A stretch of 64,000 nucleotides of DNA from assembly GCA_963741945.1 (NCBI GenBank), contig CAVUKA010000001.1:608001-672000 (forward strand), written 5' to 3'. How positions within the stretch are numbered: the first letter of the stretch is position 1; each line of letters begins with the position of its first letter. Both the position numbers and the translations under genes were made by a program. Positions 3,812-60,159 of this stretch are shown piece after piece. The notes under the pieces were generated by a model, which had not been told where the DNA came from, ran no database searches, and saw only the letters and a list, made by a program, of their open reading frames with translations. This stretch comes from an uncultured Gemmatimonadales bacterium (lineage in GTDB: Bacteria > Gemmatimonadota > Gemmatimonadetes > Longimicrobiales > RSA9).

Positions 3812-6042
3812 AGCCGCGCCACGCGGTCGGGGACGTCGGCGAACCCATCGTCGATGTGGAGGATCCTGCGATAGGCGTCGCGCGCCTCGGCGCGCTGGTT
3901 CAGCTCTTCGTGACACCGCCCCAGGTGGTAGTATACGCCCAGCAGCTCGCGCTCGTCCCGGCTCGGGAGCTCCAGGGCACGCCGCAGGACGTCGAGCGCC
4001 CGATCGAACTCGCGCTTCAGCATGTAGCACTGACCCAGCTCTTCATACACCTTCAGTCGCTCCTCGCCTTCTCCGAGCGCCGCCTGGAATTCCGCCACCG
4101 CCTGGTCCACCAGCCCCATCTCCTTGAACGCCAGCCCCAGGTCGTAATGATCGTCTGCGCTGCTACGCTCCCGCGACGATGCACCCGGACGCGCATCCGG
4201 CTCCGCCTCCGGCGACGACGGTGCAGCGGAACGCGCATCCGGCTCCGCTTCCGGCGACGACGGTGCAGCGGAACGCGCATCCGGCTCCGTCACCGCCGAG
4301 GCCGCTTCCGTCCGCTCGTCGCTCGCGTCCCCGGATCGGAGCGCGTTTCTCGCCGCCTCGTTCGCCGGATCCAGCTCCAGCACCCGCCTGTAGATGGCCT
4401 GCGCTTCCGCGCCGGAGCCCTCACGCGACAGCGCATCGGCCAGGTCCTCGAGCGCGGCCGCCGTGAGCGCGGCGTGGTCCAGCATCGACGCAAGCTCGAC
4501 TCGCCGCCTCCGCGCCGCCATCTCGCTCGGGTCCCGGCGGGAGATCTCCGTGACCACCTGGAGCGCCGCCCGGATCATGTCGGGGCCCGGCTCCCCCTCC
4601 ATCAGGATATTGAGCTCGCGCATCGCCTCGGTCGACAGGCCGCGGCTCACGAGCTCGCGCGCGCGCCCGAGCACCGCTTCCTCGTCCACCTCCACGTCCC
4701 AGTCCGGCGGCGGCTCGCTCCCCGCGGTCACCTGGCCGAAGCTCAGATCCAGCATCCCGACGTCGAGCAGCTCCTCCTCGTCTTCATCGGGCCCGCTGGA
4801 CCGCCCCGCCCCTGCGCCGACACCGGCCTCGCCCGCGTCGTCCCCCACCGACGTCCTCGCCCACGGCTTCTTCGCCCGGCGCGACTCATCGACCGCCGCG
4901 TCCTCCCCCGCGTCCTCTTCCGGCCAGCCGCGGTCGGCGGACGGCTCCGCGGCCAGCTCGTCGTCCGGCCACTTCCGACCGGGAGCGATGCCGCCTTCGC
5001 GCGCTCCCTCGGTATCCGGCTTCGCCTCCGGCGGGGCCGCGGCCTCCGCGTCCAGCGGCGGCAGCGGTTCCTCTTCCCGGTCCGGCGCAGCGTCGAGCTC
5101 CGCCAGGGATTCCGCCGCTTCCCCATCGGAAAAAGCGTCCTCCTCCGGAGCGTCCTCCTCCGGAGCCGGGACCGCGTCCCAGCCGGTGTCCAGGAGCGGG
5201 AGCGGCTCGGGCTCCGCTTCCTCTTCTTCCACCGCATCGCCGCGGCCGGTGGGCTCGAGCCCCGCCAGCCCTTCCGGCTCCGGCTCCTGCGACTCCGCCT
5301 CGTGCCCCACCCGGTGCGTCTCCAGCCCGTCGAGCCCACCGGCCACCGGGGCGCCCGGGCGGAAGGGGCGATCCAGGGCATCGGCCCGGGCCGATTCCCC
5401 GGACGGGGCCGCGCCGTTCACGCCGAGCTCTATGGACGGATGGATCGAGCGGGCTTCTTCCAGCACGCGCTCAGCGGCCGACGCGTCCCCGCGGGCCGAC
5501 CAGGTGGCGTGGGCCTTCCGCAGCTGGTTGAGCGCATCGTTCTGCCGGCCATGGCCGGCAAGGTGACGGGCCAGGACCTGCCTCGCCTCCGGGTCGTCGG
5601 CGTCGTCGGCGTATTCCTCGATCCCGTGGAACGCGGCCTCGTGGTTGCCCCCGCGCATCTGCCGCTCTGCGTACTCCAGGATCCAGCGGCGGGCGTCGGG
5701 GAGGAACCCCTGCTCGGCGGCGAGGCGACTCAGCTTCAGGTAGATGTGGGCGCGATCCGGCCGATGGCGGAGCGCCTTGTTGCAGAGGGCTATGGCGTTG
5801 TTGTAGAAGCCGGACTCCGCGTACTTGTCCGCGGCAGCCTCGTAGTAGGTCACCGCCTCGTCGGTCTGCCCGAGCCGGAGGTACAGGTCGCCCACACGGT
5901 TGTAGAGCGGGAGCTCCACTTCCGCGTCATCCGTCCGCTCCTCGGAATCGAGCGCTTTCCGGTAGGCCTCAATGGCGGCCTTCCAGTCTTCCTTCTGCTC
6001 GAGCTTCCGAGCGCGCTCTTTCAGCTTGGCGACTGATGTCAT
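3808..6042 (-). CDS. Tetratricopeptide-repeat protein with acidic low-complexity linker
   Basis: N- and C-terminal TPR motifs (LYNRVGDLYLRLG, HYDLGLAFKEMGL, YYHLGRCHEEL) around a D/E/P/A-rich centre. Confidence 0.85.
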   Translation of the reverse strand: MTSVAKLKERARKLEQKEDWKAAIEAYRKALDSEERTDDAEVELPLYNRVGDLYLRLGQTDEAVTYYEAAADKYAESGFYNNAIALCNKALRHRPDRAHIYLKLSRLAAEQGFLPDARRWILEYAERQMRGGNHEAAFHGIEEYADDADDPEARQVLARHLAGHGRQNDALNQLRKAHATWSARGDASAAERVLEEARSIHPSIELGVNGAAPSGESARADALDRPFRPGAPVAGGLDGLETHRVGHEAESQEPEPEGLAGLEPTGRGDAVEEEEAEPEPLPLLDTGWDAVPAPEEDAPEEDAFSDGEAAESLAELDAAPDREEEPLPPLDAEAAAPPEAKPDTEGAREGGIAPGRKWPDDELAAEPSADRGWPEEDAGEDAAVDESRRAKKPWARTSVGDDAGEAGVGAGAGRSSGPDEDEEELLDVGMLDLSFGQVTAGSEPPPDWDVEVDEEAVLGRARELVSRGLSTEAMRELNILMEGEPGPDMIRAALQVVTEISRRDPSEMAARRRRVELASMLDHAALTAAALEDLADALSREGSGAEAQAIYRRVLELDPANEAARNALRSGDASDERTEAASAVTEPDARSAAPSSPEAEPDARSAAPSSPEAEPDARPGASSRERSSADDHYDLGLAFKEMGLVDQAVAEFQAALGEGEERLKVYEELGQCYMLKREFDRALDVLRRALELPSRDERELLGVYYHLGRCHEELNQRAEARDAYRRILHIDDGFADVPDRVARL
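4189..4289. repeat. 42-bp in-frame tandem repeat (about 2.4 copies) within the TPR gene
   Basis: ACGCGCATCCGGCTCCGCYTCCGGCGACGACGGTGCAGCGGA at 4189 and 4231, partial at 4273; encodes EPDARSAAPSSPEA. Confidence 0.9.
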
Positions 6043-16861: not shown

Positions 16862-17557
16862 TCAGCGAGCCGGCGCGACTTCCAGCTGGATCGGCAGCAC
16901 GTCCGCCGCATACCCGTCCGGGAGCGGACCGAACGCCTTCCGGTTCGCCGCCGCCTCGATGGCCCCCATGACCCGGAAATCGAATACCGGGTTCCCCGAC
17001 CGCCGCAGCGGCCGGACGTTCCGCACCGAGCCATCGGACGTGATCTCGAAGTAGATCAGCATCTGCGGTTCGGTCGCGTCGTTCCACCGCAGGTAGCGGT
17101 GGATCTGGATGATCACATTCTCCAGGTAGTCCGGGAAGGGGAAGTCCTTCCCCTCCGTCGCGATGTTGATCCCGTCGCCGCCGGTCTCCGCCTTCTCCTC
17201 CGGCTCCGGCTTCGGCTTCGGCGCCTCCGGCCGCTTCTCCGTCTCCGGCTCCGGCTTCGGCTTCGGTTTTGGCTCCGGCTTCGGCTCCGGTGGCTTCTTC
17301 GCCGGCTCTTCCACCGCTTTCTCCACCGGCTTCGGCTTCACTTCCGGCGGTGCTTCCTCCACCGCCGGCTGCGGGTCGGTCTCCACCAGCGCGGGCGCCT
17401 GCGCGGCCGCGGGCGGCGCAGCCACCAGGTGGATCTTCACCGTCTCGAACTCGATCGGCTCGGGCAGGTGCGTGGCGACGAGCACCGGCACCAGAACTGC
17501 CACGTGCAGCAGCACCGAAATCCCCACCGGCTTCGCACCCGGGCGACGATCGCTCAC
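16862..17557 (-). CDS. TolA/TonB-like energy transducer
   Basis: TM segment SVLLH, PE/PK-rich linker and TonB-C-like domain (FEITSDGSV..RRSGNPVFD). Confidence 0.85.
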   Translation of the reverse strand: MSDRRPGAKPVGISVLLHVAVLVPVLVATHLPEPIEFETVKIHLVAAPPAAAQAPALVETDPQPAVEEAPPEVKPKPVEKAVEEPAKKPPEPKPEPKPKPKPEPETEKRPEAPKPKPEPEEKAETGGDGINIATEGKDFPFPDYLENVIIQIHRYLRWNDATEPQMLIYFEITSDGSVRNVRPLRRSGNPVFDFRVMGAIEAAANRKAFGPLPDGYAADVLPIQLEVAPAR

Positions 17558-22401: not shown

Positions 22402-22979
22402 CGCCCGTCCTCCGCCGATCCGCCCGGTCCGATCAACTCCGGCGCGCTCCCCAGCCGGTCCATTGTCACCCGCCGCAGATGGCTCGCCCCCGCGTTCACG
22501 CGCGGTGGAGCGCCGCGGCGGCCGTCCCGGTCCGCATCATCGCCGGCACCGCCCGTGTCCGGATCGGACCCCCCCTCGACGAACGACAGCCTCACCTCCC
22601 ACCGGTCCGGCACCAGCAGCGCCTCCGCCCGCTCCGGCCACTCGATCAGCACGATCTCCTCTCCCTCCCCCAGCTCCCGCCAGCCCAGCTCCCACACGTC
22701 GTCCGCATCCTCCAGACGGTACAGGTCCAGGTGGTGCACCCGCACGCCACGCTCCCCCTCGTACGTGAACACCAGGTTGTACGTCGGCGACGGCATCGCC
22801 TGATGCACCCCCGCCCCCCGCGCCACCGCCCGCGCCAGCACCGACTTCCCCGAACCCAGCGGACCCCGCAGCGCCACCACCAGCGGCAGCCGCAGCGAGC
22901 CCCGCACCGCCAGCTCCCCGATCCGACGCCCCCACCCCTCCAGCGCCTCCTGGTCCACCGTCTCCCTCACCTCCGCCAT
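22398..22979 (-). CDS. tsaE: tRNA t6A biosynthesis ATPase TsaE
   Basis: GPLGSGKS, SPTY, HLDLYRL and IEWPER motifs. Confidence 0.93.
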   Translation of the reverse strand: MAEVRETVDQEALEGWGRRIGELAVRGSLRLPLVVALRGPLGSGKSVLARAVARGAGVHQAMPSPTYNLVFTYEGERGVRVHHLDLYRLEDADDVWELGWRELGEGEEIVLIEWPERAEALLVPDRWEVRLSFVEGGSDPDTGGAGDDADRDGRRGAPPRVNAGASHLRRVTMDRLGSAPELIGPGGSAEDGR

Positions 22980-23148: not shown

Positions 23149-23210
23149 CCGGTGGCCCCGCCCATTCCGTGCGGGGCGCGTGGTCCCCTCCCGGGAGAGG
23201 CGGCCGCATC

Positions 23211-24962
23211 ATGGCGAAGCTCGACCTCCACCTGCTGGGCTCGCCGCGGGTCCTGGCCGATGGCGCCCGGGAGGTCCCGGGCATCCTGGGCAGCGCGAAG
23301 ATCATGGCGCTGCTGGCGTATCTGGCCACGTCACGGCCGGGGGCGCCGCGGCGCCGCGAGCTCATCACGGCGCTCCTCTGGCCCGAGCGGGACCGGCAGC
23401 ACGCGCGGCACGCCCTGCGCCAGCTCCTCACGCGTGTCCGTCACCTGGCGGGCGACGGCGTGCTGGCGTGCGACACGGAGGAGACGATCTGCCTTTCTCC
23501 CGCTGGCTGCTGGGCCGACACGGCGGCGCTGGAGGAGGCGCTGGCGCGCGGCCGCCTTGCCGGCGTCGTGGAATATTACACCGGTCCGTTCCTCGAGGGG
23601 TTCCACCTGTCGGAGTCGCCGGAGTTCGAGCGCTGGACGGACGAGCAGCGGCAGCGCTACGAGCGGGCGGCGCTGGACGCCGCCGACCGCCTGGCGGACG
23701 AAGCCAGGGCCGAGGCCGACCCGAAGGCGGAGGCGCGCTGGCTGGCGCGGGCGATCGAGATCGACGCGTTCAGCGAGCCGCACAGCGAGCGGCTGGTGGC
23801 GCTGCTCCTGGAAGTGGGCGAGCGCGGGCGCGCGCTGGCGGAGCGGGAGCGCCTCCGTCGTCGCGTGGAAGGCGACCTGGGGCTCTCCCTCGATGTCGAG
23901 CCGATCCCGCCCGAGCCCGGCGCCGGCCTCTTCCCCGGCGACCCCGGCGCGGGCCGCTCCCGCGGCGGCGCGCGCGGGCGGGGCAAGGCGCCCGGCCCCC
24001 TCACCGCGGGCGAGGAAGTGCGGCGCGGGCTCTTCCATTTCCGGCGCTGGCGCGTCGAGTCCGTTGAACGCGCCCTCGCCCACTTCAGCCGCGCCGCCGC
24101 TCTCGACCCCGACTCCGCCCCGGCCCACGCGGGCGTCGCGCTGGCGTACTGCACCCTCGGCCATTTCGGCCACCTCCCGCCGGACGTCGCCTTCCCCCGC
24201 GCGGAAGCCTCGGCCCGGCACGCCCTCGAGCTCGAGCCCGACCTCCCCGACGCCCACATGGCCCTCGGCATGAAGGCCCACGTCTACGACCGACGCGTCG
24301 GCGAAGCGCTCGACCGCCTCCATCACGCGCGCGACATCGCGCCGCACCTGCCCTTCCCGCACTGGGCCCTCGGGCTGGTCCACGCCAGCCTCCAGCAGCA
24401 CGACGAGGCCCGCGCCTCCATCCGCCACGCCCGCCTCCTCGACCCCGTCTCCATCCCCATCGGCACCGGCGAGGCCTGGGTCCACATCGGCGCCGGCGAC
24501 ATCGACCGCGCCGAGCGCCACGTCTGGGACACCCTCGAGCTCGACCCCGACGCGCCCCAGGCCCTCTGGCAGCTCGGCATGGTCCGCGAGCTCCAGGGCA
24601 ACCCCGCCGAGGCCGTCGGGCACCTCCGCCGCGCCCTCGATGCCTCCCCCGTCAACCCCCTCATCCTCGGCTCCCTCGGTCACGTCCTCGCCCGCGCCGG
24701 CGACGACGACGGCAGCCTCCGCATCCTCCAACGCCTCCGCAACGCCGCCGACCGCGGCCACTACATCCCCCACTTCGCCCTCGCCATGATCCACGCCGGC
24801 CGCGACGAGCCCGACCTCGCCCGCGTCGCCCTCCAGAACGCCCTCGATCAGCGCGACGGCCTCGTCGCCTTCCTCCTCCCCTGGCCCTTCACCCGCTCCC
24901 TCCACACCCACCCCTGGTTCGCCGACCTCGTCGACTCCCTCTTCCACGACATCCCCGCATAG
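23211..24962 (+). CDS. SARP-like transcriptional regulator (wHTH + BTAD + TPR)
   Basis: LHLLGSP, ALLAYLA, RRELITALLWPE..ARHALRQLL and YTGPFLEGFHLSESPEFERW motifs; C-terminal TPRs. Confidence 0.88.
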   Translation: MAKLDLHLLGSPRVLADGAREVPGILGSAKIMALLAYLATSRPGAPRRRELITALLWPERDRQHARHALRQLLTRVRHLAGDGVLACDTEETICLSPAGCWADTAALEEALARGRLAGVVEYYTGPFLEGFHLSESPEFERWTDEQRQRYERAALDAADRLADEARAEADPKAEARWLARAIEIDAFSEPHSERLVALLLEVGERGRALAERERLRRRVEGDLGLSLDVEPIPPEPGAGLFPGDPGAGRSRGGARGRGKAPGPLTAGEEVRRGLFHFRRWRVESVERALAHFSRAAALDPDSAPAHAGVALAYCTLGHFGHLPPDVAFPRAEASARHALELEPDLPDAHMALGMKAHVYDRRVGEALDRLHHARDIAPHLPFPHWALGLVHASLQQHDEARASIRHARLLDPVSIPIGTGEAWVHIGAGDIDRAERHVWDTLELDPDAPQALWQLGMVRELQGNPAEAVGHLRRALDASPVNPLILGSLGHVLARAGDDDGSLRILQRLRNAADRGHYIPHFALAMIHAGRDEPDLARVALQNALDQRDGLVAFLLPWPFTRSLHTHPWFADLVDSLFHDIPA

Positions 24963-25031
24963 CCCCCGCCGCTCGTCCGCAACACTCTCCACCCGGAGAG
25001 ATCTCCCGCAACGAAACACCACCCGCCGGCC

Positions 25032-25065
25032 GCGGGACGGTCGTGTGACGCACCCGTTCTAGATT
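25032..25065 (+). promoter_or_regulatory. Candidate BTAD-regulator box plus -10 element
   Basis: GCGGGACG-gtc-GTGTGACG (11-bp period) followed 9 nt later by TAGATT; 25039-25051 is the exact reverse complement of 23136-23148. Confidence 0.5.
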
Positions 25066-25157
25066 GCGTCCATTCCAGCCGTTCCGGGGGACGCCGCGGG
25101 CGCGGAACACCCCCGGAACCAGTCCGTGACCTCCCATCCACAGATCAGGAGGCTGTC

Positions 25158-26306
25158 GTGACCAGACTGTCCGGCTTTCTCGGCCGTCACGTGTTCCAGC
25201 CCTCGGACCGGATCCTGAGCGACCTCGCGGCCGACACCGGTCGGGGTCACATTCTGCACCAGAAGCTGACGGCCAACCGGGAGCGGAACTGGCTGCTCGC
25301 GCTGACGCTGCACGCGTGCGACAAGCTTCGCATCGGCGCGCCGCTGTCGCAGGCGGAGGAAGTGATCGTGACCGCCCTGCTGGAGAGCGGGCTGGGCGAG
25401 GCGAAGCTGAAGGACCAGGGTCGGCTGTTCGCGGAGATGGACCGGGACGTCCGGAGCATGTTCTTCCCCGGCGAGTTCGCGGGCCTCACGTCGGATGGCG
25501 CGCTCACCTACAAGGAGATGGCGGCCTGGCTCGCGGGCATCCAGCACGAGCTGCTGGCGAAGGAGAACACGGTGGTGGTGGACGCCGCGGCGATCCTCGA
25601 CGACCGGCTCACCCTCGCCGACCGTCCCGCGCTCCCGCCCTCGCTCCTCGCCGCATACGGCTGCGGCCTCACTGTCGCCGCCGACCACGGCCGCCGCTCC
25701 CGCCCCACCATGAAGTGCGGCGTGAAGGCCACCTGCTTCAAATGCGACGACGAGACCGGCTGGGACCTGGCCGGCGCCGACGAGCCGTACTGGGTGTTCG
25801 GCGCCCTGGACATCGGCGGGAATCACCCGTCCACCGCCCGCAGCCGCGTCTTCCCCGACGTGGACACCGGCGAGTTCCGCAGGTTCACCCCCGCCGAAGG
25901 CCGTATCTGGGGCCCCGGCGGCGCGCCCATGGAGCTCCCTTCCACCCTCGCCGTCGTCGTCTCCCTCTGGGAGCACGTCGGCGGCACCCTCGAGGAGATG
26001 GACGCCGTCGTCCAGGGCGTCTACGGCGCCACCGCCCGTTACCTGGCCGCCCTACGCCGCGCCAGCGCCCCCATCGCCATCGTCGCCGGCGCCGGCTCCC
26101 TCATCACCTGGCTCGGCACCTTCCTCAACGAGGACTACATCGCCGACCACACGTTCATCCTCGGCCGCAGCGTCCTCGAGCACGCCGTCACCACCGGCGC
26201 CGGCGAGGCCCGCTTCCGCCAGCGCTTCACCGACGGCGATGGCGACTACGTCCTCGAGCTCGCCGTGACCCAGAGCCCCTGGATCAGCGACGGGACGGAG
26301 ATCTGA
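25158..26306 (+). CDS. Hypothetical protein
   Basis: 382-aa ORF with strong GC3 bias and AGGAGG RBS before GTG; no family recognised. Confidence 0.75.
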   Translation: MTRLSGFLGRHVFQPSDRILSDLAADTGRGHILHQKLTANRERNWLLALTLHACDKLRIGAPLSQAEEVIVTALLESGLGEAKLKDQGRLFAEMDRDVRSMFFPGEFAGLTSDGALTYKEMAAWLAGIQHELLAKENTVVVDAAAILDDRLTLADRPALPPSLLAAYGCGLTVAADHGRRSRPTMKCGVKATCFKCDDETGWDLAGADEPYWVFGALDIGGNHPSTARSRVFPDVDTGEFRRFTPAEGRIWGPGGAPMELPSTLAVVVSLWEHVGGTLEEMDAVVQGVYGATARYLAALRRASAPIAIVAGAGSLITWLGTFLNEDYIADHTFILGRSVLEHAVTTGAGEARFRQRFTDGDGDYVLELAVTQSPWISDGTEI

Positions 26307-26425
26307 CGACGGGCGGGCCCGGCGGCGGCGGCCGCCGGGCCCGCCCGGACAGCTCTGGAGAAACCGACGACCAACGGATGCAACCACACCAACGCCCGGA
26401 CCACCTTCACAAGGAAGAACCCCCG

Positions 26426-28606
26426 ATGCGACGATCCAGCCTTCTCCCCGTGCTGATAGCATCTCTGGGACTCGGCCTCGCCTGTTCCGATACCACCGGC
26501 CCAGAACCCACGCTCTACCCCGACGGCGCCAGCGCCGGCATCACCGACGCGCTGCACCAGGATGGCGGCGTGACCGGCAACCCCCACTTCTTCTGGCTCG
26601 CGCCGATCGTCTCCGGCGACCCGTCAGCTTCCTTCGGCACCTTCGACCCGGCCGCGAGCCCGGTCGTGACCGTCGTCTGCCACTCGGCATCCGGGGTTGG
26701 CGCGACGTGCACCGGCGCGCCGGATCCCATCGCCACCTTCACCCTCGGCGACGGCGTCCTGGTCCAGGACGGCCAGTACCACCTCCAGTTCGACACGAAA
26801 GCGGCGTTCGGCACCTACACGCTTCGGACTTCGGTGGCGGACGGACCGCAGTACACCTATCGAATCGTGGTCACGATCGATGGCGACGCCGGAACGATCG
26901 AGCTCGGTCACGCCGACTTCCAGCTGGCCGAGTCCGGCAAGGACATCAAGAACCTGTCCAGCGACGACATGATCGGCCTCAAGGACGGCCGCATGCTCCC
27001 CGTCAAGTTCCGCATCGACCTCGCGGCATACGACTATGGTGTGGCCAACGCCCTCTTCGCGTCCTACGGCGACGACGGCTATCCCGACCCCGAGCTCTGT
27101 GCGACCAACTGTGCCGTGGAACAGGTGGACCCCGAAACGGGCGGCGACTTCTTCCTCTTCGACCCCCGCGCCGGCTTCAACACCACCGGCGTGCGTTTCG
27201 GGACGGAGGACCTGCCTCCTCTGGGAGAAGGCGAGGAGTACACCCTCGTCATCGACCAGCGCCTCACCGACGACGAGATCGACGACGGCTACACCTGCTA
27301 CTACGACGCCGATCTCGCCCAGTGGGACTGCTACCGCTACCTCCTCTTCCCGGAGCCGGAGGCGTTCAACAACCCGGTCCTCGTGGGGATCTGCGACTAC
27401 AGCGCGCTCCTGAACGACAGCCCGGAGAGCCTGCAGATCGGCAAGGCGGACTATTACAGCGGCGAGGGCTGGTCGGTGGACTTCCTCGAGCCCATGGATG
27501 CCACGGACCTGCTCAGCTGCGCGCCGGCGGCGGTCGGTTCGCTGACCTCGTTCCGCTCCACCCTCCGCCTCGCCTTCGACTGGCTGGTCCCGCCCGCGTA
27601 CGCGCAGCGCACCACCCGAGTCATCGGCGGCATGGCGAATGACTTCAGCGACTTCTTCCTGACGCCATACACGATCCCGTCCGAGCTGCCCGGAACGATC
27701 ATCTTCGAGGCGGAGAACCCGGACAACGGCGGCAGCGTGGACCTGTTCGCCCTCACGTCGGGCGGAACGGCCGAGGTGCTGGTAGGCGACGACACGGACG
27801 ATCGTGACGGAGTGGTGTCGAACGGCTCGCTCGCCTGGAGCGCTCACACACCATACCTGGCCGGCTCGGAGCCGTCGGCAAAGCTGCGCGTGCTGAACCT
27901 GACAACGAGCGTTGCCAGCGACGTCATCACTACAGGGCTCCCGCTCCAAATTGAGCCCGACCTGAATACCACCGGAACCGTCGTCGCCTTTGCCACGCCA
28001 CATTCCATCGCATCGCCGATGAACTTCGACATCTACACGGTTGCGCTGTCCGGGGGCGCGACGCTTCAGGTCACCGACGGAGCCGAGGCCACCACCGACC
28101 CCTGCACCAGCGAGAGCCCCGCGTGGTCGCTGGACGGGTCCGCTCTGGCATATGCGACCAACTGCGGCGGGGCCTGGATGATTGTGGTCCTCGAGCACTT
28201 CAACACGGAATTCGAGGCGAAGCACGAATACACAGTCGGCGCCTATGCACCCAGGTCGCTCGCCTGGCTTGGAGACGGCCACATCGTGTACGAGGCGAAC
28301 TTCCACCTCTACGCGATGGATGTTTCGGACGGGTCTCACACGCCGCTCACGCCTGCCTCCGACACGTCCGTCGAGGTCTCCGACCCCGTGATCTCCCCGG
28401 ACGGCACCTGGATCGCGTTCGCGTACATCCAGGGCGCCGGCCGCGAGATCTGGGCGTTCCAGGTGCCCGACCTCACGAACTGGGACCAGGTGCTGAGTGG
28501 GGAGGCCAGCTTCGTTGTCGGGCCGGAGTCCTGGGTGCTGGTGACAGACGAGGCAGTCCTCCCGCGTCCCACGGACTGGATGCCCACGCCAACAGGGCTG
28601 CAATGA
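26426..28606 (+). CDS. Secreted lipoprotein with C-terminal TolB-like (PD40) beta-propeller
   Basis: MRRSSLL..LGLACSD lipoprotein signal; C-terminal SPAWSLDG and DPVISPDGTWIAF motifs; AAGGAAG RBS. Confidence 0.8.
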   Translation: MRRSSLLPVLIASLGLGLACSDTTGPEPTLYPDGASAGITDALHQDGGVTGNPHFFWLAPIVSGDPSASFGTFDPAASPVVTVVCHSASGVGATCTGAPDPIATFTLGDGVLVQDGQYHLQFDTKAAFGTYTLRTSVADGPQYTYRIVVTIDGDAGTIELGHADFQLAESGKDIKNLSSDDMIGLKDGRMLPVKFRIDLAAYDYGVANALFASYGDDGYPDPELCATNCAVEQVDPETGGDFFLFDPRAGFNTTGVRFGTEDLPPLGEGEEYTLVIDQRLTDDEIDDGYTCYYDADLAQWDCYRYLLFPEPEAFNNPVLVGICDYSALLNDSPESLQIGKADYYSGEGWSVDFLEPMDATDLLSCAPAAVGSLTSFRSTLRLAFDWLVPPAYAQRTTRVIGGMANDFSDFFLTPYTIPSELPGTIIFEAENPDNGGSVDLFALTSGGTAEVLVGDDTDDRDGVVSNGSLAWSAHTPYLAGSEPSAKLRVLNLTTSVASDVITTGLPLQIEPDLNTTGTVVAFATPHSIASPMNFDIYTVALSGGATLQVTDGAEATTDPCTSESPAWSLDGSALAYATNCGGAWMIVVLEHFNTEFEAKHEYTVGAYAPRSLAWLGDGHIVYEANFHLYAMDVSDGSHTPLTPASDTSVEVSDPVISPDGTWIAFAYIQGAGREIWAFQVPDLTNWDQVLSGEASFVVGPESWVLVTDEAVLPRPTDWMPTPTGLQ

Positions 28607-28644
28607 CCATCTAGAACCGGCTTCCCCTTCACCCCGGGACCACC

Positions 28645-30474
28645 ATGGGCCTCTTCGCGCGGATACGGGAACGGCGGCTGTTCCAGATCGTGGCGGCGTA
28701 CCTGGCGGCCGGCTGGATCGGCCTGGAGGTGTTCGACCAGCTCGTGGACCGCGAGGTGCTGCCGCGGGTGGTCTACACGATCGCCCTGGCCTGGTTTGCG
28801 GCCGGGATCGTGGTGGCGGTCCTGGTGGGGTGGTACCACGGGGAGAAGGGGAAGCAGAAGGCGCCGGTGCAGGAGATCGTCACCATCGCGGTGGTGGCGC
28901 TGGCGGTGCTCGGGTTCAGCGGCTCGTCCGCGTACGACTACTGGTCGCAGCGTCGGGCGCTCGCGGCCGCGGAAGCGTCGGCGCTGGACCTGGGCCGCGT
29001 CGCCGTCCCCTACTTCGTCGACCTGTCGGCCGCCGGTGAGCTGCGCCCGGTGGCCGATGGGCTGACGGAGTCGCTCATCGACGAGCTCTCGGAGGTCTCC
29101 GGTCTGGACGTGCTCTCCCGCAACGCCGTAGCGCCGTACCGCGAGGCCCGTGTGCCGCTGGACAGCGTCGGGCGTGCGCTGAAGGCGGGGACGGTGGTGG
29201 ACGGCGCGGTGGAGAAGGTGGGCGACGACGTGCGCGTCGTCGTCCGGCTGGTGGACGGCCAGAGCGGCGTGGAGTTCGACCGCGCGGTGCTGGAGCGGCC
29301 GGCCGCCGAGCTGCTGGCGGCGAGGGATGCGGTGGCGGAGGAGACGGCGAGGCTGCTGCGCGGGCTGCTCGGCCACCAGGTGCAGCTGCGGCACACCAAG
29401 CGGCAGACGGAGAGCCTGGCCGCGTGGACGCTGTACCAGCGCGCGGAGTTCGAGCGGAAGCAGGCGGAGGACGCCCTGCTCGAGGGCGACGCCGGGGCCA
29501 TGGCCACCGCGTTCGACCGCGCCGACTCGCTCCTCGTGCAGGCTCAGCTGCTCGACCCCACGTGGCCGGAGACGGCGGTGCTGCGCGGGCACATCGCCTT
29601 CCGCCGCTCCCGCCTCGGCACCGACCTGGACGACATGGTGGCGTGGGGGGACCGCGGCCTCGAGCGCGTCCAGGCCGCACTCGACCTCGACCCCAACGAC
29701 GCCCGCGCGCTGGAAGTGCGCGGCACGCTGAAGTACTGGCACTGGCTCATGGGCGTGATCCCCGAGCGCGACGAGAGCGACGCGCTGTTCCGCAGCGCCC
29801 GCGCGGACCTGGAGCGCGCCGTGGACATCGACGATCGCCTGGCCAGCGCGTACGCCTGCCTCAGCCACCTCTACCTGAACGCCCCGGACCTCACCGCCGC
29901 CGTCCTGGCCGGGCGCAAGGCCTACGAGGAGGACGCCTACCTGGCCGATGCCGACCTCGTGATCTGGCGCATCGCCAGCGCGTCGCTCAACCTCGGGCAG
30001 TACCGGGAGATGGCCCGCTGGTGCGACACCGGGCGCGAGCGCTTCCCGGGCAACTACCGGTTCGTCGCCTGCCAGCTCCTCGCCATGAACACCGACGCCG
30101 TGGAGCCCGACGTCCCCACCGCCTGGGACCTCCTGGCCGCCCTCGACTCCCTCGCCCCCGTGAACCAGCGCGACTGGGAGATCGCCCGCGCGCGCCTGGC
30201 CATCGCCGGCGTCCTCGCCCGCGCCGAGCTGCCCGACAGCGCCCGTGCCGTCCTCGCCCGCGCCCACCGGGGCATCACCGAGGCCGTGGACCCCACCCGC
30301 GACCTGCTGCTCGTGGAAGGTGAGGTGTGGACCCAGCTCGGCGATGACGACCGCGCCATCGACCTCCTGAAGCAGTACGCCGCCGCCAACCCCGGCACCG
30401 ACTTCGGGGAGCAGGGCTGGTGGACCAATCTCCGGCGCCACCCGCGCTGGAGGGAGGTCGTCGCCGGCGGCTGA
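28645..30474 (+). CDS. Membrane-anchored TolB_N-like/TPR domain protein
   Basis: RERRLFQIVAAY N-terminus with three TM helices, RVAVPYF..ADGLTESLIDELS..GLDVLSR domain and TPRs. Confidence 0.8.
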   Translation: MGLFARIRERRLFQIVAAYLAAGWIGLEVFDQLVDREVLPRVVYTIALAWFAAGIVVAVLVGWYHGEKGKQKAPVQEIVTIAVVALAVLGFSGSSAYDYWSQRRALAAAEASALDLGRVAVPYFVDLSAAGELRPVADGLTESLIDELSEVSGLDVLSRNAVAPYREARVPLDSVGRALKAGTVVDGAVEKVGDDVRVVVRLVDGQSGVEFDRAVLERPAAELLAARDAVAEETARLLRGLLGHQVQLRHTKRQTESLAAWTLYQRAEFERKQAEDALLEGDAGAMATAFDRADSLLVQAQLLDPTWPETAVLRGHIAFRRSRLGTDLDDMVAWGDRGLERVQAALDLDPNDARALEVRGTLKYWHWLMGVIPERDESDALFRSARADLERAVDIDDRLASAYACLSHLYLNAPDLTAAVLAGRKAYEEDAYLADADLVIWRIASASLNLGQYREMARWCDTGRERFPGNYRFVACQLLAMNTDAVEPDVPTAWDLLAALDSLAPVNQRDWEIARARLAIAGVLARAELPDSARAVLARAHRGITEAVDPTRDLLLVEGEVWTQLGDDDRAIDLLKQYAAANPGTDFGEQGWWTNLRRHPRWREVVAGG

Positions 30475-30512
30475 GCCGCGTCGCGGCCTCTCCGTGTCCG
30501 CGCCCCCGCGCT

Positions 30513-30686
30513 CCGGCCGTTTTCGTGTCCGTGCTCCGGCCGTTTTCGTGTCCGTGTCCCGTGCCCCGGCCGTTTTCGTGTCCGTGCTCCGGCCGTTTTC
30601 GTGTCCGTACTCCGGCCGTTTTCGTGTCCGTACTCCGGCCGTTTTCGTGTCCGTGCCCCGTGCCCCGGCCGTTTCGTGTCCGCGCC
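30513..30686. repeat. Tandem array 1: seven CCGGCCGTTT(T)CGTGTCCG units
   Basis: Units at 30513, 30536, 30566, 30589, 30612, 30635 and 30665 (periods 23/30). Confidence 0.95.
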
Positions 30687-30829
30687 CCGTGCTCCGTCTG
30701 GCGTGTCCGGCAGTTCCCATCCGATGACCGCAAGAACACGAGCCGGCTCTCTGCCGTCCGAGCACCGAACCCCCGGACCCGGTCACGCCAGACGGACCAC
30801 GGACACGCAGTTCACAAACAGGGAGCACG
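30687..30829. repeat. 143-bp structured repeat, copy 1 (24-bp inverted arms)
   Basis: Ungapped match to 31441-31583 with 11 mismatches by hand alignment; arms 30687-30710 and 30779-30802. Confidence 0.95.
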
Positions 30830-30945
30830 TACGCGATCCCGCACCCGGCCCGTCCCGATCCGCCCCCCGTTCGACCCTCACGGCCATGGAGCACGCGCCG
30901 TCTGGGGCTCAGATTGAACTCCGGTCCGTCAACGGAGTGGCCGCG

Positions 30946-31323
30946 ATGCAGGAACCCGGGACAGTCTTCGAGTTCGAGAAGCTGGATGTGTACCAGCGGG
31001 CACTGGAGCTCAGGCCGCTCATTGCCGAGCTCGTGGCTACGCTGCCGCCCGGCTACGGCGACCTCCGCAGCCAGGCCGGCCGCTCTGAACGATCCATCCG
31101 TCTCAACATCGCCGAGGGCTCAGGCCGCCGACGCCCCGGCGGCAAGGTGGAGCGCTACCGCACCGCGCGCGGCTCCGCCAACGAGTGTGCCGCCGCCGTG
31201 GACGAGATCCGGCGACTCGGCTGCGCCGACACGCACCTCGCCCAGGAAGCCCTCACGCTCCTGCACCGGATCGTCTCCATGCTCACCCGCCTGATCATGA
31301 CCTGGGAAAAGCGACAGGATTGA
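30946..31323 (+). CDS. Four-helix-bundle protein (23S rRNA IVP / Avd-like family)
   Basis: FEKLDVYQRA..DLRSQ..RS..SI.LNIAEGSGR..ARGSANEC..RIVSMLTRL signature; GGAG RBS; 125 aa. Confidence 0.9.
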   Translation: MQEPGTVFEFEKLDVYQRALELRPLIAELVATLPPGYGDLRSQAGRSERSIRLNIAEGSGRRRPGGKVERYRTARGSANECAAAVDEIRRLGCADTHLAQEALTLLHRIVSMLTRLIMTWEKRQD

Positions 31324-31334
31324 CGCCCCGTGCC

Positions 31335-31440
31335 CCGGCCGTTTTCGTGTCCGTGTCCCGTGCTCCGGCCGTTTCGTGTCCGTGTTCCGTGCCCCGGCCG
31401 TTTCGTGTCCGTGTCTGCCCCGGCCGTTTCGTGTCCGTGT
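31335..31440. repeat. Tandem array 2: four CCGGCCGTTT(T)CGTGTCCG units
   Basis: Units at 31335, 31365, 31394 and 31420. Confidence 0.95.
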
Positions 31441-31583
31441 CCGTGCTCCGTCTGGCGTGTCCGGCAGTTCCCGTCCGATGACCGCAAAGACATGAGCCGG
31501 GTCTCTGAGATCCGAGCACCGAACCCCCGGACCCGGTCACGCCAGACGGACCACGGACACGCAGTTCACACCCAGGCAGCACG
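31441..31583. repeat. 143-bp structured repeat, copy 2 (29-bp inverted arms)
   Basis: Direct repeat of 30687-30829 at offset 754; arms 31436-31464 and 31533-31561. Confidence 0.95.
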
Positions 31584-31587
31584 CAGT

Positions 31588-33579
31588 TCACACCCCCAGC
31601 TTCGCCTTGACCTCGTACAGCTCGTCCCTCAGCTGCGCCGCCCGTTCGAAATCCATGGCGGCCGCCGCCTGCTTCATCTGCTCTTCCAGGATCTTCGCCC
31701 ACTGCTCCAGGTCCACCTCGTCCGCGTAGCTCGGCTTCGGCTCGGCCACTTTCGCCAGCCGTTCCGCGCGCGCGTCGGCCACGCGCGTGCTCAGGATCAT
31801 CTGCTCGATGCTCTTCACGATGCTCTGCGGCGTGATCCCGTGCTCCTCGTTGTACGCCACCTGCACGGCCCGGCGGCGGTCCGTTTCCCCGATCGCCTCT
31901 TCCATGGACCGGGTGACCCGGTCCGCGTACATGATGGCGCGGCCCTCCACGTGCCGGGCCGCGCGGCCGACCGTCTGGATGAGCGAGCGAGCGTCGCGGA
32001 GGAAGCCCTCCTTGTCCGCGTCCAGGATGGCGACGAGGCTCACTTCCGGCAGGTCCAGCCCCTCCCGCAGCAGGTTGATCCCCACCAGCACGTCGAACCG
32101 TCCCAGCCGCAGGTCGCGCAGGATCTCCATGCGCTCGATGGCATCGATGTCCGCGTGCATGTAGCGGACGCGCACGCCCACCTGCTGGAGGTAGTCGGTC
32201 AGGTCTTCCGCCATCCGCTTGGTCAGCGTGGTGACCAGCACCCGTTCGCCTTTCGCTTCCCGCTCCCGGATCTCCGCCAGGAGGTCGTCGATCTGGCCTT
32301 TCACCGGGCGCACGTCGATGGCCGGGTCCACCAGCCCGGTGGGGCGGATCAGCTGCTCCACCACCACCCCGCCGCTCTTCTCCAGCTCGTAGTCGCCCGG
32401 CGTGGCGCTGACGTAGATGATCCTGTCCAGGAGGCTCTCCCACTCATCGAAGCGGAGCGGGCGGTTGTCCAGGGCGCTGGGCAGCCGGAAACCGTAGTCC
32501 ACCAGCGTCGTCTTCCGCGCGCGGTCGCCATTGTACATGCCCCGGATCTGCGGCAGGCTCTGGTGGCTCTCGTCCAGGATCACCAGGAAGTCGTCCGGGA
32601 AGTAGTCGTACAGGCACGCCGGGCGCTCGCCCGCCGACCGGCCCGTGAGATGGCGCGAGTAGTTCTCGATTCCCGGACACGTCCCGATCTCGAGCATCAT
32701 CTCCATGTCGAAATGCGTCCGCTGCTCCAGCCGCTGCGCTTCCAGCAGCTTCCCCGCCGCGCGCAGCTCCAGCAGCCGCGCCTCCAGCTCCACGCCGATC
32801 AGGTCCACCGCCCGCACGATCCGGCTCCGGTCCGTGACGAAGTGCGTGGCCGGGTAGATGGCCGCCCGCTCCATGCGCGTGATCGTCTCGCCCGTGAGCG
32901 GGTCGAAGCGCGTGATCCGCTCCACCTCGTCGCCCCACAGCTCGATCCGGACCGCCTGCTCCTCGTACGCCGGGTAGATCTCCACCACGTCGCCCCGCAC
33001 CCGGAACACGCCGCGCGTGAACTCGAAGTCGTTGCGCGCGTACTGGATCCGGACCAGCCCCTCCAGGATCTCACGCCGCCCGATCTCCTGCCCCACCTCC
33101 ATCATCAGCATGAGCTCCCGGTACTGTCGCGGGTCGCCCAGCCCGTAGATGCTGCTCACGCTGGCGACGATGACCACGTCGTCCCGCTCCATCAGCGCGC
33201 TCGTCGCCCGCAGACGCAGCCGCTCGATGTCCTCGTTGATGCTCGCGTCCTTCTCGATGTACGTGTCGCTCGAAGCGACGTACGCCTCCGGCTGGTAGTA
33301 GTCGTAGTAGCTGATGAAGAACTCCACCGCGTTCCTCGGGAAGAACTGCTTCAGCTCCCCGTACAGCTGCGCCGCCAGCGTCTTGTTGTGGCTCATCACC
33401 AGCGTCGGGCGACCGTGGTTGGCGATCACGTTCGCCATGGTCACCGTCTTCCCCGACCCCGTCACGCCCAGCAGCGTCTGGAACGGATCGCCCCGCCGCA
33501 GCCCTTCCGTCAACTCCGCCACCGCACGCGGCTGATCGCCCTGGAGCGGGAACGGGAGCTCGAGTTCGAATGTGCTCAT
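31588..33579 (-). CDS. uvrB: Excinuclease ABC subunit B
   Basis: [53 protein letters not shown] and C-terminal UVR domain. Confidence 0.98.
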
Positions 33580-58237: not shown

Positions 58238-59041
58238 TCAGCCTTCGTGCCGGCGGACTTTGCGGTAAACGGCCAGTATATTCACTCGAAAACCGCTCAA
58301 TATTTCGTAAGAGTTCACGAGACGCTCGTACAACACCCCCGCGAGGAAAGCCGGGCGCGACCACATCAGGTAGTTCGGCTTGGTCTCGATCATCTCCAGG
58401 CGCTCCTCAACGAGCCCTGCGGAGCGGGCGAGGCGCGCCAGCGTCCGGCGGCTATTGGCTCGATACGCCGTAGGGAACGTGCCGTCTGTTGCACGCCCTC
58501 GCAGACGCATGTTCAAATATTTGTGAAGAGAATTGGGCGTCGCACGCGCCAGTAATGCCACATAATGCCAGCGGTTGGGGGTCAAGACGATCATAACCCC
58601 ACGGATCTTCATTATCCGAGCGACTTCGCGCAGAGCCACGTCAGGCGCCCGCAAGTGCTCGAATACATAGCGAGAAAACACCAAATCAAAGGAACCATCG
58701 GCGAACGGAAGCTCGTTAATCGAGCCGAGTACCCGGTCGTCCAAGATCTGGTTGTGTGTGATGGCGGCGTCTAGGTCCACCCCAATTACGCGCCGCTGAG
58801 CACCCCGATAGTCCCGAGGATAGAGTCTTCCGCCTCCGCACCCGATATCCAGTATGCGAGCATCGGAGCGTAAATACTCTCGAATAGTGCTGTCGAGGCG
58901 CTGCGATTCGTCGGTGTAATTCGGATAGAATCGTTGTACCAGGCGGTCAATGCCTCGTCTCCTCGATCTACTCACGATAGGTATTGCCTCAATGGAAGAA
59001 GAACCGGGTAACCGCCGGATGGCCTTCGAGCCTGTGTTCAA
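58238..59041 (-). CDS. Class I SAM-dependent methyltransferase
   Basis: ILDIGCGGG, GVDLD and LPFADGSFDLV..VFEHL motifs; start uncertain. Confidence 0.88.
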   Translation of the reverse strand: MNTGSKAIRRLPGSSSIEAIPIVSRSRRRGIDRLVQRFYPNYTDESQRLDSTIREYLRSDARILDIGCGGGRLYPRDYRGAQRRVIGVDLDAAITHNQILDDRVLGSINELPFADGSFDLVFSRYVFEHLRAPDVALREVARIMKIRGVMIVLTPNRWHYVALLARATPNSLHKYLNMRLRGRATDGTFPTAYRANSRRTLARLARSAGLVEERLEMIETKPNYLMWSRPAFLAGVLYERLVNSYEILSGFRVNILAVYRKVRRHEG

Positions 59042-60123
59042 ACTGCTACAACCTCTCTATAGAACGCCTCTCCCGCCGATCTGCTCAGTCGAGATCGGAA
59101 GACCTCCTGGTTGTGGTGCCCGATTGCTCGGAGAAGGTCCCTGTTTGCGTCGAGCGTTTGAATCGCTTCAATCAGGGACGGAACGTCTCCGGGAATAATG
59201 CGATATCCGGACTTACCATCAACAATGAAGCGATCGAGTGCCCCAACTGTCGTCGCAACCACAGGAAGACCTGCTCGCATCGCCTCGATCATCACATAGG
59301 GCATGGCTTCGGAATAGCTAGGCAAAACCAAAACATCCGCAGCCAAATAGAACGCGTCGAGTTTGCCTGAGCGGACGGGGCCGGCGAACTCTATCTCGCC
59401 GTCTGAGGAATCCGCCAGCGTCTTCAATTCGGACAGTTGCGGACCATCCCCCACGATCGTGAGAAGACAACGGCAGCCACTCCGCCGCAGCTTCAAAACC
59501 GCTTCCAGCAACTCGAATACACCCTTTTCGCGGCGCACCTGTCCGACGAAAAGCAGGTGCAGAGCGGCAAATTTGCCAGGGTTCTGAATCGACCGCGTTG
59601 GAACGCTATCCATGGGAGAAAAATTCTGGTATTCGGCCGACCACACGCTGGGGAATAGAACGTCAAAGGTGGTTCGTTGCTCTTCAGTTAGAAAGTATGC
59701 GGTGGTGACACGCCGGAAGACCAGTCCCGCCGCCGAGCGGGCGAGTCTGGACTTCAGATAGCTCAACTCCTCAAACCGACCACCGTGGAAGAAGATAGAG
59801 ATCTTTCCTCCATACTTCGCGGGGAAACTAAGCAAGATCAAAAGCAGCTTCAGAAACGTTCCAGGAGAAATTGTGGCATTGACGAATACGCGCCGGTACG
59901 GCTCCTGACGAACGAGCTTGCGCAAGCGCCACAAGCGCCGCACAACCCGGAACATGCGCCAGATCCACCACCGATCGGTGGATCCATTAACTGTTCCAGG
60001 ATCAAAGGTATCGGGATCTGCAAAATGCGTTAGCACCACCACCGCCCGCATGTGCGTCACGACGCCTCCGGCGGCGGCCTTAGAAGAGGCCGACGGTCCA
60101 ATGATCAGCAGGTCCTTACGCAT
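59038..60123 (-). CDS. GT4 glycosyltransferase
   Basis: FVGQVRREKG, VGDGP and LPSYSEAMPYVMIEAM..GLPVV motifs. Confidence 0.9.
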   Translation of the reverse strand: MRKDLLIIGPSASSKAAAGGVVTHMRAVVVLTHFADPDTFDPGTVNGSTDRWWIWRMFRVVRRLWRLRKLVRQEPYRRVFVNATISPGTFLKLLLILLSFPAKYGGKISIFFHGGRFEELSYLKSRLARSAAGLVFRRVTTAYFLTEEQRTTFDVLFPSVWSAEYQNFSPMDSVPTRSIQNPGKFAALHLLFVGQVRREKGVFELLEAVLKLRRSGCRCLLTIVGDGPQLSELKTLADSSDGEIEFAGPVRSGKLDAFYLAADVLVLPSYSEAMPYVMIEAMRAGLPVVATTVGALDRFIVDGKSGYRIIPGDVPSLIEAIQTLDANRDLLRAIGHHNQEVFRSRLSRSAGEAFYREVVAV

Positions 60124-60159
60124 CCGGCGTCGGGGAGATTGAAGCCAGCTCGTTCCACC

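Follow-up and report, generated by a model that had tools for sequence, protein, structure and literature searches.

A four-helix-bundle gene and its dispersed hairpin repeats at the uvrB junction of an uncultured Gemmatimonadales bacterium: a possible REP/RAYT-like pairing

REPtrons consist of a RAYT transposase (HUH/Y1) and REP or REPIN repeats, according to the available parts of PMC5581495 and PMC3733652. The intervening sequences (IVS) of 23S rRNA in Coxiella and Leptospira, as described in the available part of PMC4990558, share with the locus presented here an ORF of the S23p family, an inverted stem of 28-29 bp enclosing that ORF, short tandem repeats beside it and a patchy presence. 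Avd of the diversity-generating retroelements offers a precedent for a protein that binds a cognate stem-loop located beside the gene encoding it, in the available part of 10.1101/2023.10.23.563531.

The locus lies in a window of 64,000 nucleotides (positions 608,001 to 672,000 of contig CAVUKA010000001.1, assembly GCA_963741945.1) from the genome of an uncultured Gemmatimonadales bacterium, designated G000; G001 is its congener. A gene for a four-helix-bundle (FHB; PF05635/TIGR02436) protein is bracketed by two hairpin units, each preceded by a tandem array (Table 1). Re-measurement bore out an earlier note on this DNA, in that the 143-bp units are direct copies 754 bp apart with 11 gapless mismatches and both arrays are present. 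The layout described there also stands, although its distances required correction: the left array starts approximately 17-30 nt past the upstream stop rather than 40, the right array follows the stop of the FHB gene by 1-5 nt rather than about 10, and the right unit, adjacent to uvrB, ends 4 nt before its stop codon (31588-31590) rather than abutting it. Neither integrase, transposase nor reverse transcriptase families were found among 62 window ORFs (E<=1e-10), as the note had stated, nor among six ORFs in a separate profile search. The upstream gene matches no Pfam or NCBIfam family, scans for sigma-70 promoters and for terminators returned none, and Rfam yielded nothing at gathering score within the window and no credible match for the unit (two hits, E 1.1 and 3.7).

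Table 1. Features of the FHB locus and its neighbours, in window coordinates.
Feature	Position	Strand	Remarks
Upstream gene, 609 aa, last in the 8-kb block that separates tsaE from the cassette	28645..30474	+	
Left tandem array, ~7 units of 23-30 nt, sub-words of the hairpin left arm	30492..30686	+	TRF period 23, 6.4 copies, score 219
Left hairpin unit: arm 30687-30710, loop, arm 30779-30807, tail	30687..30829	+	Probably the derived copy
Leader box, ~GRCC-N6-GCYAT[G/T], median ~68 nt before the start, common to many FHB genes of the family	30873..30888	+	EM motif
FHB gene, 125 aa, SD-like GGAG at 30934-30937, single copy in G000	30946..31323	+	PF05635, TIGR02436
Right tandem array, 4 units of 26-30 nt, sub-words as in the left array	31325..31440	+	TRF period 29, 4.4 copies, score 191
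Right hairpin unit with arms at 31436-31464 and 31533-31561, where the FHB gene and uvrB converge	31441..31583	+	Place shared with relatives (word at the same spot in G064 and G072)
16-nt micro-duplication (31558-31573, 31580-31595), holds the last uvrB codons and stop	31558..31595	-	
uvrB, convergent neighbour	31588..33576	-	TIGR00631, 1044.9 bits

Each unit has inverted arms of 24-29 nt spaced 68 nt apart and folds better than its shuffles (z -2.75 to -5.57 as DNA, -3.35 to -5.06 as RNA). The arms are identical between the two units; the mismatches are clustered, eight in the loop (30719-30756) and three in the tail. The tail of the left unit matches sequence duplicated from the uvrB stop region, and therefore the left unit seems to have been copied locally, and recently, from the one beside uvrB. 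That the second unit is instead a repeat mis-joined during assembly, a doubt raised earlier, is extremely improbable: no read or contig was found to span the whole locus (the gene and the start of the right array, 30861-31358, are contained in a short-read contig of run X1 with three differences), but the copies differ at clustered positions and have different arrays, the gene order agrees with G001, and another genome (G073) has an independent direct pair at the same locus. When flanks were compared with each other, this locus scored 270 in direct orientation, whereas none of 713 small genes of G000 (a control set of crude gene calls) reached 60, direct or inverted. The proposal that the gene and its repeats form one functional unit is thus upheld as a linkage beyond chance, but not as a private two-unit cassette, the unit being a member of a dispersed family.

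The FHB protein passes the cut-offs of both profiles to which it had been assigned (59.4 versus 33.8 bits for PF05635, 59.6 versus 24 bits for TIGR02436). Its AlphaFold model (pLDDT 93.5) predicts four long helices in a fold like that of Xcc0516, which is the top Foldseek match (2gsc, TM 0.79-0.91), and also supports the previously suggested likeness to Avd (PDB 4dwl and 8ub7; TM 0.68-0.80 at 10-13% identity). A predicted complex of four protein copies scored 0.30, the mark being 0.42, and is given no weight in either direction. A dN/dS of approximately 0.2-0.5 indicates purifying selection on the FHB gene. Members of PF05635 occur widely (in 28 of 41 relatives, with up to 8-10 matches per genome), and about 40 close homologs have 53-73% identity to the FHB protein; in a class-wide search of 401 genomes with an alignment of close homologs, G000 alone reached E<=1e-30. 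Metagenome and genome scans for relatives gave mainly distant matches. The leader box was derived from 67 leaders with a log-likelihood of 178, compared with 41-46 for shuffled leaders and 89-113 for leaders of random genes. The available parts of PMC8700078 and PMC3936711 name the PF05635 family and do not mention flanking repeats.

The FHB gene is linked to its repeats beyond this locus as well. Besides the cassette pair, the hairpin family occupies six other sites in G000, two of which have no copy in G001 (8 and 10 nt there in place of ~330 nt), and genome comparison shows that new copies arose after the G000/G001 split; a check for TSDs in these two filled/empty pairs, the flanks of which are strongly diverged, revealed no clear duplication. 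A count of the arm word across 73 family genomes gave 13 copies in G000, 31 in G064, 12 in G072, two in G001 and none in G073, which has a variant word, while the reversed pattern has none in G000, G064 or G072. At least two copies are found in four of the five carriers, in which the FHB lineage adjoins the 3' end of uvrB, and in none of 68 non-carriers, a comparison to be read in light of the carriers being close kin with one, non-independent locus from whose flanks the word was picked. Dispersal of the word, as hairpins and as arm arrays, is shown by these counts only in genomes that carry the FHB lineage. Single matches in G042 and G014, apparently in coding sequence, were treated as chance, and G068 (74% complete, uvrB end not found), left unscored, has one match that resembles a real unit. 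One word match in viral contigs is inside a capsid ORF and was likewise taken as chance.

Thirteen units of G064 and three of G000 were aligned and folded as inverted-arm doublets; the copies in G072 are mainly one-arm arrays. Unlinked units of G064 share their loops at 75-86%, which indicates that whole units are copied. Members of the family are mainly intergenic, with a few in frame within genes, and most units of G064 directly follow stop codons, frequently between convergent genes. The 48 ORFs beside 25 repeat loci include no transposase, integrase or nuclease family (E<=1e-6).

Alternatively, the repeats could be an ordinary REP-like family that host factors have spread in one clade and that was inherited by coincidence at the FHB-uvrB junction. 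In favour of this are the close kinship of the carriers and their shared locus; such repeats are typically sited at convergent gene ends, certain REP families lack a transposase of their own (available part of PMC3733652), and in G064 an ordinary membrane-protein gene is also bracketed by two units. However, sister genomes of the same genus in which the gene is absent or lost have no copies: in genus g5, G072 has 12 copies and an intact gene, while G005, G069, G070 and G071 have none and a decayed gene, and in genus g43, G065 has none as opposed to 31 in G064. Moreover, FHB genes in general carry arms, with an inverted flank score of at least 60 at 35 of 82 loci and a direct score of at least 75 at five of 82, versus none of the 713 controls (20 of 102 hits, having a flank below 200 nt or a duplicate row, were left out of this survey, four of 103 loci had no hit, and L076 and L150, identical in gene and flanks, were counted once), and other FHB lineages carry other words. 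Such a coincidence is considered quite improbable. The earlier note had allowed for an abundant REP/MITE-like element with no association to FHB genes; the family does resemble REP elements, yet its occurrence is bound to this FHB lineage. The enrichment near FHB genes that the note had proposed to look for holds for the uvrB lineage and not for the other paralogs, since the arm word adjoins only that lineage among the nine FHB matches of G064 and the ten of G072.

In three genera the FHB lineage occupies the junction of uvrB and tsaE and is followed by the hairpin word. G000 and G001 differ at 22 of 42 four-fold sites in the FHB gene, versus 40 of 363 and 84 of 327 in two neighbour genes, and in a tree the FHB gene of G001 clusters with genes from other loci (support 96/89). 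The neutral divergence and the tree suggest gene replacement at uvrB rather than plain vertical inheritance, the gene apparently having been swapped between the congeners. Two FHB cassettes of G001 are absent from orthologous sites of G000, which are cleanly empty, and on such comparisons FHB cassettes are shown to be gained, lost and apparently swapped. The attC sites of integrons have the core motifs RYYYAAC and GTTRRRY. The locus resembles an integron cassette in that direct copies of a hairpin of 130-140 bp bracket a small gene, but there is no integrase among the window ORFs and no cassette array, the unit in relatives is single or forms an inverted pair, and neither core motif has a match on either strand of 30475-31600.

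The earlier note had proposed an excisable cassette, in which recombination between the direct units would free a 754-bp gene circle and leave a solo unit; in an extended form of this idea, opening of the circle in the loop would produce the common mirror-arm cassette, and solo hairpins would be the scars of past visits. Several observations are in keeping with excision: the apparent swap of the gene, the clean empty sites of other FHB cassettes, the recurrence of direct pairs with unrelated sequences (G073, L023 and five of 14 loci of a second FHB lineage), and the fact that the inner arms of the pair are the mirror arms found in most FHB loci. Nevertheless, none of 33 uvrB 3' ends is an empty site with a solo unit, the presence of the lineage at uvrB in five of five carrier genomes is a poor fit to frequent hopping, attC cores are lacking here, no recombinase occurs in the window, and the direct pair is not general, G064 and G072 having downstream units only and G001 an inverted, diverged pair. 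Contigs contain no joint within the cassette, but at a depth of only ~4 this is uninformative. The excisable cassette is therefore not sustained in the form proposed, and is regarded as distinctly unlikely.

The arms that enclose the gene (30779-30807 and 31436-31464) are 93% complementary over 29 nt. If they pair in a transcript, the locus might be an RNA-level element like the 23S rRNA IVS, with the stem cut by RNase III or stabilising, the protein binding RNA, and the repeats spreading by slippage or recombination without the protein. The Coxiella IVS is a parallel, with a 28-bp terminal stem, heptamer repeats and an S23p ORF in the available part of PMC4990558; Avd binds an RNA stem-loop (available part of 10.1101/2023.10.23.563531), and the G064 units lie mostly just past stop codons. 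In contrast to an IVS, however, the locus is between protein genes rather than in rRNA, has no Rfam match in the window, and has complete hairpins on both sides and repeats dispersed throughout the genome. The gene is convergent with uvrB and not within one transcript, and the upstream arm is missing in G064 and G072. There is little RNA-type covariation, because all 16 units compared have an identical outer 12-bp stem (the word by which they were chosen) and only three of 26 pairs changed on both sides. An RNA-level element would also leave unexplained why dispersal tracks the presence of the gene, and it is thought unlikely.

The locus is similar to a REPtron in that the gene is single-copy in G000 while its flanking repeat is over-represented across the genome, the repeats are inverted-arm doublets around a spacer, and new copies have appeared where a relative has none, for the most part between genes but sometimes in frame within them. 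It differs in that a PF05635 helical bundle takes the place of the HUH/Y1 transposase, the repeat is present in few copies (2-31 matches), and there is no GTAG end, the only three GTAG in 30475-31600 being inside the gene. The hairpin word is at none of the nine Y1_Tnp (PF01797) loci examined and G064 has no PF01797 match, and so a RAYT was rejected as the driver at these loci. A model coupled to reverse transcription was rejected for G000, the genome of which has no RVT_1 (PF00078) match; this family is present in 15 of 73 family genomes including G072, but not in G000, G001, G064 or G073, and unlike an Avd system the locus has no template/variable repeat pair or target gene in view.

With moderate confidence, one FHB lineage and its own REPIN-like hairpin family are proposed to constitute a pairing of the REP/RAYT kind, the partner being a non-enzymatic protein with the Avd fold that presumably acts on the repeats. 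The bundle, having no known catalytic site, would bind the hairpin of its own lineage as single-stranded DNA or RNA and, together with host replication or repair enzymes, promote copying of units to nearby and distant intergenic sites, much as RAYT does with REPINs but minus the transposase. Occasionally the gene would be copied together with its arms, and the tandem arrays would be slippage expansions of arm sub-words rather than a separate component. Against this pairing, the FHB gene of G001 is intact, yet that genome has only two old copies of the word and its own flank has no dispersed family; G073 has the gene and one distant copy of its variant word; the FHB protein of the highest-copy genome, G064, has a deviant N-terminus; and G000 retains orphan repeats of two FHB lineages that are absent from it.

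The pairing might be extended, as a tentative and rather doubtful generalization, to PF05635 proteins as sequence-specific propagation factors, each lineage recognising its own word and driving copying and at times gene movement by means of host enzymes only, with no transposase, integrase or reverse transcriptase. If true, this would constitute a new class of intragenomic replicator and give a function to a very large family; full-text searches, with subscription journals thinly covered, returned no report linking FHB genes to hairpin repeats. As a defined pair of one 125-residue protein and one 12-bp arm word, the locus is a candidate route for transposase-free repeat spread that is accessible to binding and copying assays, with natural controls in the congener, whose gene and flanks are different, in a relative that has no repeats and a decayed gene, and in paralogs carrying other words. 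The second FHB lineage shows the pattern in part: at least nine copies of its word are found in three of 14 carriers and in none of 59 other genomes, but nine of the 14 carriers hold fewer than two copies of the exact word, which was derived from two of the three high-copy genomes of that lineage.

The four-helix-bundle (FHB) gene stands, as the earlier note had described, between two direct hairpin units with adjoining tandem arrays. The 143-nt units run in the same direction, 754 bp apart; their arms are identical, and the 11 mismatches fall in the loop (eight) and the tail (three). Each has inverted arms of 24-29 nt and folds better than shuffled sequence whether either strand is taken as DNA or as RNA, and the arrays are composed of left-arm sub-words. 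That such a pair is an assembly artefact has a negligible probability. The inner arms double as mirror arms, the inverted flank repeats common around FHB genes, and the direct-pair and mirror-arm layouts are nested. No Rfam family matched the unit or the window, and the stated lack of integrase, transposase and reverse transcriptase held for all window ORFs scanned; the absence of integrase there also led to the rejection of an integron cassette.

Features of the window, by position
Feature	Position	Remarks
Tandem repeat	4174-4289	42 bp, 2.8 copies
Degenerate repeat	17181-17290	6/18 bp
tsaE	~22566-22961	
8-kb block	23169-30474	regulator-like gene with TPR, two genes with no family match, large gene with weak PD40 match
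Left hairpin unit	30687-30829	direct copy, 143 nt
Left inner arm	30779-30807	mirror arm
Leader box	30873-30888	common to many of 67 FHB leaders, ~68 nt before start
FHB gene	30946-31323	PF05635/TIGR02436 member, sole FHB gene in the genome
Right inner arm	31436-31464	mirror arm
Right hairpin unit	31441-31583	direct copy, 143 nt
Polysaccharide-type genes	59038-62815	glycosyltransferase, probable polymerase and flippase

The structure model of the FHB protein (pLDDT 93.5) matches Xcc0516, described as a homopentamer (PMC4990558), with TM 0.79-0.91; the claimed resemblance to the Avd fold of diversity-generating retroelements (DGRs) was confirmed by a weaker match (TM 0.68-0.80). The cassette was rejected as a DGR because RVT_1 has no match in G000, the genome of the window; nor has it any in three family genomes with the same FHB lineage (the congener G001, G064 and G073). 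At three other loci (L148, L149, L189) the apparent start codon of a divergent tsaE, on the other strand, shares positions with the leader box upstream of the FHB gene.

Among 73 family genomes the gene has four close relatives (55-65% identity; G001, G064, G072, G073), all four at the uvrB 3′ end and convergent with uvrB. A uvrB match was found in 63 genomes; of 33 uvrB ends examined, five have a full-length FHB frame, one (G071) a decayed FHB gene, 17 a nearly direct run into tsaE, nine other sequence of 75-479 nt and one no nearby tsaE. The 8-kb block lies between tsaE and the cassette in both G000 and G001. The 12-nt word of G000 recurs downstream of the gene in G064, in a single hairpin, and in G072, in arm arrays; the hairpin pair of G073 is direct but of a variant sequence, and that of G001 is inverted and diverged (score 61; 0/300 shuffles). 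In G072 an arm with a short array is inserted within tsaE, ~390 nt from the FHB start (L148, C14, ~16392). Other palindromic repeat families occupy the uvrB-tsaE junction without an FHB gene in G005 (L054) and G002 (L200); the junction is therefore a recurrent insertion site.

The tail of the right unit contains a 16-nt duplication of the final uvrB codons and stop, codons that relatives show to be native to uvrB. A degenerate form of this tail is present in the left unit, which therefore originated from a uvrB-side unit. The loops of the pair share 90% identity, where the median for 16 units is 54%, so the copying was recent. Copying of the unit alone and duplication of gene plus unit with loss of one gene both fit, and the pair may also have arisen through an integrated circle from another strain's uvrB locus. 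An excisable circle, the weaker part of the first reading, is unlikely: solo-unit empty sites were sought and none was seen at the 33 uvrB ends.

A coincidence of locus history, in which an ordinary REP-like family was merely inherited together with the FHB-uvrB junction, is an unlikely explanation. The arm word, the hairpin-arm sequence of the unit, is dispersed at six further G000 sites (C1:475k, C1:680k, C2:9.9k, C3:60k, C3:771k, C3:780k), none with an FHB gene, and the idea of a private two-unit element had to be given up. The complete 68-nt loop occurs only twice in G000. Comparison with G001 covered five of the six sites (all but C1:475k): two are empty in G001, with gaps of 8 and 10 nt against ~330 nt in G000, two are common to both genomes, and at one G001 has an extra gene without the word. 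The family is therefore REPIN-like, with copies gained since the species split. At C1:680190-680600 (L038) an arm-derived 6-nt array, missing from G001, extends the reading frame of the upstream gene by a long Asp-Thr/Asp-Ala tail; we take this gene to be rfbB-like by sequence rather than by profile. At C2:9875-9926 (L039) an ORF, presumably (again not by profile) for a WYL-type regulator, contains one of the arms, within a 2-kb stretch whose 97% G000-G001 identity exceeds the usual 86-91% and suggests recent exchange.

The arm-word pattern CACGCCAGACGG-N1-2-CAC, counted in the 73 family genomes, has 13 matches in G000 (nine outside the cassette), 31 in G064 (29 outside), 12 in G072 (nine), two in G001 (both outside) and none in G073; 65 of the 68 other genomes have none and three have one. 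It is absent from same-genera genomes without a full-length lineage gene (G005, G069, G070, G071, G065); G068, a 74% complete genome, has a single match. Of the FHB matches in G064 (n=9) and G072 (n=10), those of the uvrB lineage alone have the word in their flanks; the word is at 0/9 Y1-transposase loci, and 48 ORFs neighbouring repeat loci include no mobility families. The proposed repeat-FHB association stands for the uvrB lineage (at least two copies of the word in 4/5 carriers against 0/68 others; Fisher p 5e-6, an overstatement, the carriers being related and the word taken from their own flanks). A second FHB lineage with its own flank word partly repeats the co-occurrence (at least nine copies in 3/14 carriers against 0/59 others, at least two in 5/14 against 1/59), two of its three high-copy genomes being the source of the word.

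More generally, for 82 of 102 FHB hits with adequate flanks and 713 small control genes, inverted flank similarity of at least 60 was found at 35/82 against 0/713 and direct similarity of at least 75 at 5/82 against 0/713; 5/14 second-lineage loci have a direct pair. FHB cassettes turn over, since two G001 cassettes are missing at orthologous G000 sites (one an 11-nt gap); orphan copies of their repeats are kept in G000. Between the congeners, even the FHB gene at uvrB has apparently been replaced, because its dS (0.97 against 0.37 for uvrB, from a simple count that high GC3 biases) and its differences at four-fold sites (22/42 against 40/363 and 84/327 in neighbours) exceed those of its surroundings and the G001 gene clusters with genes of other loci (support 96/89). 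Near their ends, eight contigs from one metagenome assembly and a single contig from a second (L055-L064) carry FHB genes similar to the query (36-46%), several with upstream hairpins, a multicopy expansion. L093 (G007, C124) is a tandem FHB pair with three direct hairpin units between.

RAYTs are described as single-copy genes with flanking REPINs abundant genome-wide (PMC5581495). The FHB gene and its dispersed flanking repeat behave alike, but the system is not a REPtron because it lacks the HUH transposase and the GTAG end. The 23S rRNA IVS elements have protein and stem in common with the cassette, which differs in lying outside rRNA; an IVS-like element acting at the RNA level is rather unlikely. 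A full-text literature search (main texts) found no description of an FHB-repeat link; what the locus contributes is a signature across the genome like that of RAYTs, together with internal controls. The linkage between gene lineage and word is established, as are the dispersal, the empty sites and the turnover, and no cognate transposase or reverse transcriptase was present among the families searched. On balance, the FHB protein would recognise its own hairpin and help host enzymes copy it; a precedent for the recognition is Avd, reported as a positively charged, S23-protein-like pentamer that contacts an RNA stem-loop (10.1101/2023.10.23.563531). Against protein-driven copying count G001 and G073, which have the gene yet few copies, the deviant N-terminus of the G064 protein, an ordinary G064 gene likewise bracketed by units, and orphan repeats that outlast their gene. 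Elsewhere in the window, ORFs at 60-63 kb failed the high-GC codon filter, which suggests a transferred block.
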